This document shows, in pieces, positions 22,341 through 24,740 of a stretch of 64,000 nucleotides of DNA. Source of the stretch: Plasmodiophora brassicae (lineage: Eukaryota); the NCBI GenBank assembly GCA_036867785.1, contig CP145412.1, forward strand, positions 1,488,001 to 1,552,000. The letters are read 5' to 3'. The notes under the pieces were generated by a model, which saw only the letters and a program-made list of their open reading frames with translations, was not told the origin of the DNA and made no database searches. Both the position numbers and the translations under genes were made by a program. Numbering within the stretch: position 1 is the first letter of the stretch; the number at the start of each line of letters is the position of its first letter.

Positions 22341-24740
22341 TCACGGAACCGACAGCAACGGGCCGCTAAGCACTGCAAGGACGTGGTCGGTCAGATAGAT
22401 TCGGATGATCTCGACGATAAGGACGCCGGCGAACGCGAACGGCAGCGGTTTCAGGTCCCGCTGGAACAGGGGCGCGATCAGGACGCAGGCACAGAACGCG
22501 CCGATGATTGAGCCCAGGCCAAGCGCCAGCGCGCTGACCGTGGACTCCGGGATCGACTGCAGCAGGGCGTACCAGATGAAATCGAAGAGCCGCATCTGGA
22601 CATCGCCGACCTGGTACGTCAGCTTGGGGATCCAGTCGGTCGGCGCGGACAACACTGGACGCGTATGCACCGGGTCGACATGCTCGTCATCGTCTTCGTC
22701 CCGGAAATGCATGGCTGGGTTGTGGAGCTCCATATCCGGGCCGTCGGGATGGTCGTCGGATCGCAGCAGGGTGTACAGCGGCAGGGCAACGTGTCTGCGA
22801 GGCACCACCTGCGCGTACAGGTCGATCCCGACCGGCATCAGCAGCAGGATCAGGATCAGGATCCGGTTCAGTGTCAGCAGCATGATGATGGCCATCAGCA
22901 TGTTCAGGCCCGCCATACTGCATCGCCGGTACCCGGCCGGCACGCCGCGAAAGTAGATGCCGATGATGCCGGCGGCGCCCGCATTGAAGACGAACAGGCA
23001 CAGGGAGATGACGTCGATGGGAACGCCGATGACCTCGGAGACGAGGACGACGGCTAGGCCACCGCCCGTGATGAAGATCATGAAGAAGTCCAGGGCCAGG
23101 ACGCGACGCAGGACACTGATGCACTGGTCACGATACCGACGCAGCAGCAACCCGATGATGGCCACGATAACGACGATGATGATGATGAACACGATGAGCT
23201 GAGTCGGTTGCACCGATTGGTCGCGACTCTGCGACACGGCTGCTGACGCGGATCCCTGCCACACAGACGCGATGTAAGACGTCAAATCGAGTCGCAGCGC
23301 CGAACCGGGCCCCGCACCTGTGCTGTCGTGCCCGCGAGGACGCCGGAGAACCACGACACGACCAGCATACCGAGGAACAGGGGCAGGACAACGCTGTGCG
23401 CCAGCGACCAGACGGCCAGGCACACCTCCACGATCAGCTGGCCGTGTGCGCCTCGCAGAATGTATCCCCGATCGGAGCGCACGACGACGTCCCCGTCGAC
23501 GCGTGTCACGAGCGCCCGGGAATGGCCGCGTTCGCCACGTGCCCGCCTCAGCAGGGCCCGCACGTCGTCCTCGTCGCCGAGCGGAACGCGTCCGACTTCG
23601 CAGAGCGACCTGGGCAGATTGCGCACGTCGCAGAGCGGCGGCACCGTCTCCTGCGAACCCCTGAACTTGTCGATGGCGGCGGCGTCGGCCAGGGCGACCC
23701 AGCACGACGGGTCGCGCAGCACGCGCCGATCGTGGCACGTCCTGCATCGGACGGCGTCGAACATGGACTCGATGTCGAACATGCGCGTGCAATTCATGCA
23801 CTGGCCCAGGCGCCCGTCGATGATGTCCGATTCGAGGTCCGAATGTGCAACGCACGAGTAGACGGCGCGGTCGGGCAGGTTCCCATGGCGGCCGGCAAGG
23901 CCGTTGCCGAAGATCAGCTGGCCGTGCACGGCGCCCCAGCAGGCGCGGCCGTTGAAGTTGGGCCCGCCTGCTGCGACACGGCACTGGAAGGGTTGACCGT
24001 CCAGGTCCCGTCCCGTAATCGCACAGTAATACAGTTGCAGCAGGCCGAACGTCAGCCTGGGGGCGATCTCCCTCAACGACTCGACGATGAACGGGATGGC
24101 CGATGCCGAGCAGCACCCGTACACGTCGAGGACGTCGAGGGACGACACGTCGAACACGAACTGGCGCAGCTGGGCGAACTGGCGCGGGCGCTCGAAATGC
24201 ATCTGCCGGCACCGGATCATGGTCAGGGCGCGCAGCTGACGACACGACCGGGCGATGACGGGCAGGACGCCGGCGTCCACCGCGGCGCAGTCGTCGAGGT
24301 GGATCGATTTCAGGTGGGCGAATCGCGCGTTCGACAGTAACCGGTCGACGAGGAGTGTATGCACTGCAGGCGAGCGCGTGTTAGTGAACGTGTTTGCAGG
24401 CAGACGCGACACGGGTGCGCCCACCGTTGAATCTGAACGGGTACAGGTCGACGACGTCCCACAGGTAGGGCGAGTAGACCGTGTTCTGCCATGCCGAGCA
24501 GACGCGCGCGAGGCGTACGAGATCGGATATGGTGAGGAACGAGAACACATGCCAGAAGACGTCCTCGGGGTAGGCGGTCCCGAACCCGAAGCGGATAACG
24601 GGCGCGGCGGCGGCGTCGACGACGACGGCGACGGGCCCGGTCTCGACGGCGGTGTCGCGCGGGTCCGGCATCAGCAGGCGCTGCTTCTCGTCCGCGTTGA
24701 CGACCGTCGCGCCGGCGCGCTTCGATGCGTGTGATCCCAT
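22341..24740 (-). CDS. F-box/LRR-presenilin-like fusion protein, 758 aa, 3 exons (24740-24425, 24363-23318, 23255-22341)
   Basis: F-box YPEDVFWHVFSFLTISDLVRLARVCSAW, then LRR-like LKSIHLDDC..LRALTMIRC, then a presenilin-like TM series (HSVVLPLFLGMLVV; PIDVISLCLFVFNAGAAGIIGIYF; VGIDLYAQ; QMRLFDFIWY; KPLPF). The 61-nt and 62-nt GT-AG introns keep the frame. Confidence 0.85.

Follow-up and report, generated by a model that had tools for sequence, protein, structure and literature searches.

A presenilin-type membrane domain with a rebuilt active site, fused to an F-box module in Plasmodiophora brassicae

What might a presenilin do once its active site has been rebuilt and an F-box module has been placed before it in the same chain? 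The question is raised by PBRA_008281, a minus-strand gene in a 64,000-nucleotide stretch of the genome of the clubroot protist Plasmodiophora brassicae (GenBank assembly GCA_036867785.1, contig CP145412.1, positions 1,488,001 to 1,552,000; hereafter the window, whose positions are used below). The gene comprises three exons, is spliced and expressed, and encodes a protein of 758 amino acids that matches database protein P0005 and is named in databases only as hypothetical or F-box domain-containing. Our analysis suggests that a membrane protease linked to Alzheimer's disease has been turned into a device that tags membrane proteins for destruction. The active site is rebuilt and, judging from sequence, probably dead. 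We hold, with somewhat more confidence than doubt, that PBRA_008281 is a catalytically dead presenilin that grips transmembrane clients for a Skp1–Cul1–F-box (SCF) ubiquitin ligase.

One spliced gene with F-box and presenilin coding sequence

Transcript evidence came from four sequencing runs, from four studies, among the 20 runs containing this stretch. None of them is recorded as RNA; their RNA nature is a guess, which the skipping of introns supports. The whole PBRA_008281 coding sequence lay on one contig in three of the four runs, and two of those contigs ended near the expected transcript ends. A contig of 2592 nt from run X5 covered positions 22273-24987 and one of 2518 nt from run X9 covered 22284-24924, with the introns skipped in both. 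The fusion point lies inside exon 2, and the F-box module and the presenilin domain share a reading frame and a transcript. Since the first presenilin transmembrane helix (TM1) is encoded by the same exon as the leucine-rich repeats (LRRs), the fusion is independent of splice prediction. Contigs from all four runs showed no alternative letters at the motif residues, and thus the active-site residues are not sequencing errors. Sequencing error and the joining of two genes were both ruled out by the spliced contigs across the fusion. We also rejected as a gene a 679-codon open frame (22341-24380), which is an off-frame run into exon 3.

From its N-terminus, the protein consists of a disordered tail, an F-box, about four FBXL-type LRRs, a Cys/His-rich domain and a presenilin domain of nine helices (TM1-TM9), with the F-box, LRR and Cys/His-rich parts on the cytosolic side. 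Comparison of the family profile with FBXL2 gave E 3.6e-21 for the first stretch, and Foldseek matched FBXL2, FBXL17 and SKP2; the LRR count was taken from the secondary structure of the predicted model. These three proteins likewise have an F-box followed by FBXL-type LRRs, but PBRA_008281 differs from them in having only about four LRRs, an unmatched Cys/His-rich domain and a polytopic membrane domain. To our knowledge, known FBXL proteins are soluble or lipid-anchored.

Eight residues of the Cys/His-rich domain (C233, C247, C276, H279, C294, C297, C312 and C315) were invariant in all 15 aligned rows, for which reason we propose that it probably holds two zinc sites. Its model was confident (pLDDT 87, pTM 0.82). 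We found no clear match to this fold among 48,161 representative chains (best Z 3.7) and none by Foldseek at E<=0.001, which is no proof of a new fold; nor did we find a paralog in the P. brassicae genome. An Atlas hint of the plant F-box C-terminal family PF28114 was set aside, its score (0.77-0.79) being below the level of a trustworthy lead. A family-wide acidic dileucine sorting signal was likewise rejected, with the strict form in 2 of 18 sequences against 1.8 expected and the loose form in 7 against 3.7 expected.

Both sequence and fold make the membrane part a homolog of presenilin. Exon 3 passed the cut-off of the Pfam presenilin family PF01080 (40.3 versus 34.3 bits, with canonical members at 364-462 bits), and the protein scored as a presenilin, not as a signal peptide peptidase (SPP). 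HMMER aligned it to the TM6 (VYDL), TM7 (LGLGDF) and ALPALP segments of PSEN1 (E 1e-6), and the family profile matched PSEN1 71-463 in one stretch (E 3e-27). Gamma-secretase entries took Foldseek ranks 1-16, the best being chain B (E 2e-7). Model helices, Foldseek and profile coverage together indicated the nine-TM presenilin fold.

Shared remodelling of the active site across the family

Used as the query of an exhaustive search, exon 3 retrieved 51 proteins at E<=0.001. We scanned 41 plus 4 of the 50 others against Pfam, omitted the repeat-rich match P0057 and used four short fragments for alignment only. Among the scanned matches were nine canonical presenilins (364-462 bits), and the remainder scored 25-77 bits. 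Searching with the Cys-rich region of one member brought in five sequences closely related to it, and a metagenome scan gave four loci, two of which were sequences already in the set. Queried with the window protein or with the full alignment, the word index returned only PBRA_008281 itself. Both an F-box (E<0.001) and a presenilin domain were present in 17 of the 19 family sequences of at least 700 amino acids; the other two near-full-length members seem to be without a proper N-terminus and keep the Cys-rich domain. The shorter members that were looked up lay mostly on short contigs. One of the sequences, P0062 (399 amino acids, on a 12-kb contig), might be a stand-alone form.

The named members are P. 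brassicae (Endomyxa), Paulinella chromatophora (Cercozoa) and Nonionella stella (Foraminifera), and all three rhizarian branches are therefore represented. Rhizaria is the range of the named members only, and occurrence beyond it is possible. A quick tree of 48 rows separated 38 family rows from the nine canonical rows by one branch (SH-aLRT 96, no bootstrap). PBRA_008281 sits on a long branch, with 24-44% identity to the other full-length members. The F-box–presenilin family is real and conserved and, as far as we searched, undescribed.

Family counts rest on 41 aligned rows, with two near-duplicates dropped and rows that end short omitted at each site (four at TM6, five at TM7 and six at PAL); positions are given in PSEN1 numbering. 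All nine canonical rows were canonical at each of the active-site positions considered. A preliminary description of this DNA had located ID, RLFD and KPLP in place of the TM6 YD, TM7 GLGD and PALP motifs; the HMMER alignment to PSEN1 bore out each of these placements (Table 1). That both aspartates are kept proved correct for PBRA_008281 itself (D599 and D679) and incorrect for its family. The D257 position held Asp in 36 of 37 rows, and the preceding Y256 position held Tyr in one of the 37. At the D385 position, 30 of 36 rows had Asp, three Asn, two Glu and one Cys. These losses fell in three places in the tree, namely Paulinella alone, a clade of the three sequences with Asn (support 98) and a clade of the two with Glu (support 99); five further sequences, relatives of one member, keep the Asp. 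With 83% conservation, D385 ranked below about 20 other columns of the presenilin domain.

GxGD and PAL had also been described as lost. Both motifs are indeed gone, although loss alone does not describe the change. The G382 position was Arg in all 36 rows (Arg676 in PBRA_008281) and Gly in none, and the G384 position was Gly in two of the 36 and varied over ten different residues, including Pro, Phe and Ile. The P433 position was Arg in 29 of 35 rows, Lys in two, Pro in two, and Thr and Ser in one each; at A434, Pro occurred in 33 of 35 and Ala in none, so that no row kept PAL. Residues had been gained as well. The S169 position in TM3 was Asp in 30 of 33 family rows and mostly Ala or Ser in the nine canonical rows, and Pro716 was present in 35 of 35. 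In PSEN1, S169, W165 and G384 are reported to bond to the substrate backbone (PMC11130327). In the preliminary description, orthologs with canonical motifs were to indicate lineage-specific decay; none of the orthologs carried such motifs, and the remodelled ones were shared among them. The register of these motifs is supported by the spacing from D385 to P436, which is nearly equal in the family (46 residues in 22 of 35 rows) and in canonical presenilins (47 residues in eight of nine). This spacing disfavours an alternative register, in which RPLP corresponds to KALP minus three residues; PAL is absent in either. Three canonical presenilins (P0048, P0049 and P0052) read [RK]-P-L-P-A-L-P before TM9, and the family's RPLP could stem from a short deletion in an ancestor with that sequence.

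The segment between TM6 and TM7 also differs. The Pro of the beta1-beta2 hairpin (P284 position) was present in 36 of 36 family rows, and in PSEN1 both strands are reported to pair with substrate (PMC10290658). The beta1 Tyr and the G382 position lay seven residues apart in 34 of the 36 rows of the family and 60-496 apart in the nine canonical rows; because a short turn joins the two strands in these 34 rows, the loop at which PSEN1 cleaves itself is absent. An acidic insert was found only in PBRA_008281 and P0009, with 64 residues from D599 to P664 compared with 26-36 in the other family rows. Autoproteolysis, suggested earlier as a check, would be a weak test of activity, since the segment that is cleaved in PSEN1 is missing and the acidic insert lies before beta1, not after it. 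The Asn204 position was Asn in 39 of 39 family rows; it belongs to the NF motif, which in PSEN1 is reported to bind PEN-2 (PMC7248309).

Compared with canonical presenilin as represented by PSEN1, the family thus keeps the nine-TM fold, the TM6 Asp, Asn204, Pro284 and the hairpin, and PBRA_008281 also has the TM7 Asp and shares its genome with nicastrin and APH-1 genes. By contrast, the family reads xD for YD, RxxD for GxGD and [RK]PL for PAL, with RxxD and [RK]PLP as its signature, lacks the self-cleaved loop, has lost D385 in six of 36 rows, carries a 410-residue F-box/LRR/Cys-rich N-terminus and forms a separate branch. PBRA_008281 is not to be classed among the active A22A peptidases, because YD, GxGD, PAL and the cleaved loop are all wanting.

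Substrate receptor, membrane anchor or protease

Mutants of PSEN1 bear on the meaning of these residues. In presenilin-null cells, D257A/E, D385A/E, G382K/L/Q/V and P433L/Q reportedly yield no APP epsilon-cleavage product, whereas G382A and P433A retain activity (PMC5669866). Both G382 and P433 belong to the lining of the S2' pocket, and activity is described as virtually abolished by bulkier side chains at G382 or G384 (PMC10290658). Since G382K inactivates PSEN1, we infer that the Arg at the G382 position disables the site, much as an invariant residue beside the site does in iRhoms, which lack one or both catalytic residues (PMC3149277). D385 is dispensable in three separate lineages, which account for its loss in six of 36 rows.

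In the mechanism that we propose, the Arg at G382 and the Arg or Lys at P433 would fill the S2' pocket and the water cavity and so block hydrolysis, while the hairpin, D257 and the new TM3 Asp would still hold the transmembrane helix of a client. That substrate-side elements were kept or gained (P284, the hairpin and the Asp at S169) would count in favour of such a grip. The F-box would recruit Skp1–Cul1, and the cytosolic tail of the client would be ubiquitylated, leading to its extraction or lysosomal sorting. Of the two possibilities raised in the preliminary description, a pseudoprotease or a protease of altered specificity, the shared remodelling and the loss of the TM7 Asp in six of 36 rows favour the former; inactivity and client binding are themselves what we infer.

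The protein would act inside a gamma-secretase-like complex. The genome contains a nicastrin gene with both lobes (on C7) and an APH-1 gene (on C12). Searches with the Pfam family, two canonical proteins and a TM7-motif DNA pattern, which score the best candidates only and ignore introns, returned either the PBRA_008281 locus or nothing, and on this basis a canonical presenilin gene is likely absent from the P. brassicae genome. Because nicastrin and APH-1 are kept while no other presenilin was found, PBRA_008281 probably forms a complex with these two. No PEN-2 candidate emerged from a genome search whose control also matched nowhere. Skp1 is represented by three loci (on C4, C8 and C9). Two further genes encode SPP/SPPL proteins, each of which has G-x-G-D and QPALLY. 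The SPPL gene converges, tail to tail, on an open frame of 275 codons that would encode a membrane protein with several passes (L004:2443-3270, minus strand, C1 of G000). The APH-1 gene (L003:1525-1911, C12 of G000) looks intact. Human APH-1 has two intramembrane histidines; by eye, one of them seems to have become Gln here and the other is kept.

Several observations weigh against a dead client receptor. The TM7 Asp is still present in PBRA_008281 and in 30 of 36 rows, and D257 is nearly invariant, as an active enzyme needs. The PSEN1 mutants each changed one residue of a human protein, whereas co-evolved changes could compensate, and G382R was not among the mutants considered here (PMC5669866). 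The canonical control comprised nine rows, and the tree, built quickly, carries SH-aLRT values but no bootstrap. It could equally be the LRRs and the Cys-rich domain, in the cytosol, that read the substrate.

This last point leads to an alternative in which the presenilin domain is inactive and has no client. It would anchor the SCF module in the membrane with nicastrin and APH-1, or its cavity, with two Asp and two basic residues, would sense a lipid, an ion or a small ligand and so switch the cytosolic domains that pick the substrate. The family motif data for inactivity apply to this alternative equally; a Cys/His-rich domain with eight invariant residues and a confident unmatched fold suits substrate recognition, the two Arg in the S2' pocket could shut out peptide altogether, and protease-independent functions of presenilin and nicastrin are reported from moss (PMC3788181). 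However, a simple anchor would have no need for D257 in 36 of 37 rows, the hairpin Pro in 36 of 36 or an Asp on the substrate path of TM3 in 30 of 33, and no ligand is known; we consider this alternative rather unlikely. We also think it unlikely that the protein is an active protease with a rewired site, in which Arg places or activates the aspartates, or favours acidic substrates, self-cleavage is unnecessary because the loop is gone, the F-box passes the cytosolic product to the SCF ligase and members without D385 are secondary losses. PBRA_008281 does have both aspartates, most of the family has D385, the genome, which keeps nicastrin and APH-1, yielded no further presenilin, and SPP with Derlin-1 and TRC8 is a reported precedent for cleavage coupled to ubiquitylation (PMC7366577). 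Yet D385 was lost three separate times, twice in clades (of three and two sequences), G384 is free over ten residues, D385 is less conserved than some 20 other columns, and each class of change alone is reported to kill PSEN1 (PMC10290658, PMC5669866).

Very improbable, and in the main refuted, is lineage-specific decay in an obligate parasite or an artefact that joined two neighbouring genes. The long branch and the low identity to other full-length members would fit decay, but the fusion lies inside one exon, a spliced contig spans the whole coding sequence in three of four runs, free-living Paulinella and Nonionella share the architecture and motifs, and new invariant residues were gained.

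The client-receptor reading has parallels in three other systems. Like iRhoms and Derlins (PMC3149277), the family is a conserved subfamily with catalytic residues partly missing, an invariant residue next to the catalytic centre, an extended N-terminus in the cytosol and a link, here a predicted one, to ubiquitin-dependent degradation. It is not a member of their group, having a presenilin fold with GxGD aspartyl rather than rhomboid serine chemistry, and its ligase adaptor is in the same chain and of the SCF type, whereas theirs is a separate membrane RING ubiquitin ligase (E3). SPP, which reportedly works with Derlin-1 and the E3 TRC8 (PMC7366577), resembles it as a GxGD-fold protein tied to an E3 for membrane-protein turnover and in its short TM6-TM7 loop; SPP, however, is active and has canonical motifs, whereas PBRA_008281 is of presenilin type with a remodelled site. 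In Physcomitrella, presenilin and nicastrin function without a need for proteolysis; there the aspartates of an ordinary presenilin were mutated (PMC3788181), whereas here the remodelling is natural, family-wide and accompanied by an F-box fusion.

Tentatively, and with more doubt than for the molecular role, we suggest that a presenilin–F-box fusion lost proteolysis early in Rhizaria and replaced ordinary presenilin in lineages such as Plasmodiophora. The scaffold of nicastrin, APH-1 and pseudo-presenilin would there have become the part of a membrane SCF ligase that recognizes substrates, choosing clients by the helix that crosses the membrane.

Pseudoproteases are well known among rhomboids. 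The literature listings we searched described no natural pseudoprotease family among presenilin-type proteases, and no description of an F-box–presenilin fusion was found among the top-ranked titles and starts of abstracts, a search that left most subscription journals uncovered. No papers were found that treat presenilin together with Plasmodiophora. A survey of presenilins in 47 species reports both aspartates as conserved throughout, and the words F-box, Rhizaria and Plasmodiophora are absent from its main text (bioRxiv 10.1101/394270). Both domains are visible to automatic annotation, so the architecture may already stand in databases. Pairing a pseudoprotease with a ligase follows a known logic; as far as we searched, a presenilin form joined to an SCF adaptor is new.

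Whether the oldest role of presenilin was proteolysis or trafficking and degradation is described as an open question (PMC2770060). The family would separate the degradation role from proteolysis in nature and tie the presenilin fold directly to ubiquitylation, making a protease-independent role of presenilin testable. If our interpretation is correct, it provides a natural pseudoprotease of the GxGD family and a polytopic F-box receptor that recognizes substrates inside the membrane. A presenilin that by nature does not cleave could serve as a client trap in structural studies, and the family also brings a 200-residue domain without a match among solved structures.

Features of the locus and neighbouring genes

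Table 1. Features of PBRA_008281 in the window, in transcript order
Feature	Position	Strand	Remarks
Spliced transcript contig	22273..24987	minus	F-box and presenilin coding sequence on one piece
Exon 1	24425..24740	minus	Start codon, Met-Gly N-terminus, disordered tail, F-box
F-box, residues 58-95	24456..24569	minus	PF12937, 43.3 bits versus cut-off 24.3, E 3e-11
Intron 1, 61 nt, GT..AG	24364..24424	minus	Skipped in 4/4 runs
Exon 2	23318..24363	minus	LRRs, Cys/His-rich domain, presenilin TM1; single open frame
About four FBXL-type LRRs, residues ~107-205	24065..24361	minus	Profile versus FBXL2, Foldseek, model
Cys/His-rich domain, residues 204-410	23450..24070	minus	Family-specific; eight invariant Cys/His
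Presenilin TM1, residues ~427-450	23330..23401	minus	Model, profile
Intron 2, 62 nt, GT..AG	23256..23317	minus	Skipped in 4/4 runs; retained form also in X1
Exon 3	22341..23255	minus	Presenilin TM2-TM9 and stop codon; PF01080 E 2e-10
Asp510, TM3, at PSEN1 Ser169 position	23088..23090	minus	Family-specific gain
Asn545 = PSEN1 Asn204, NF motif	22983..22985	minus	Phe of the motif is Ala here
Asp599 (GAC, V-G-I-D-L) = PSEN1 Asp257, TM6	22821..22823	minus	Preceded by Ile, not Tyr
Acidic low-confidence insert, TM6a to beta1	22635..22760	minus	~37 residues more than in other members, P0009 excepted
Beta1-beta2 hairpin, Pro664-Arg676	22590..22628	minus	Short turn; model strands 667-670 and 673-676
Asp679 (GAT, M-R-L-F-D-F) = PSEN1 Asp385, TM7	22581..22583	minus	Preceded by Phe, not Gly
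K-P-L-P replacing P-A-L-P	22440..22451	minus	HMMER alignment to PSEN1

The protein begins with Met-Gly-Ser-His-Ala-Ser-Lys (24740-24720, minus strand), which resembles an N-myristoylation start; Gly was found at position 2 in six of 13 Met-starting family members. Upstream, the region 25000-26500 (minus strand) shows two EF-hand-like motifs by eye, and the one frame scanned gave no Pfam match. In run X12, one 5941-nt contig extends from this region into PBRA_008281, which may reflect read-through or overlapping untranslated regions.

Directly downstream of PBRA_008281 lies an intronless protein kinase gene (21068-22000, minus strand, Pfam E 4e-43) with a hydrophobic, signal-peptide-like start and its own contigs in the runs. 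Another open frame (19674-20402, minus strand) opens with a stretch resembling a signal peptide and has an acidic region; its C-terminal C2H2 finger is weak (Pfam E 0.001, under the cut-off). On the plus strand, a gene of the glycoamylase family PF10091 (15692-19261, E 2e-61), a mostly bacterial family, continues into weak ricin-B lectin matches, and a glutathione S-transferase gene lies at 28259-29095.

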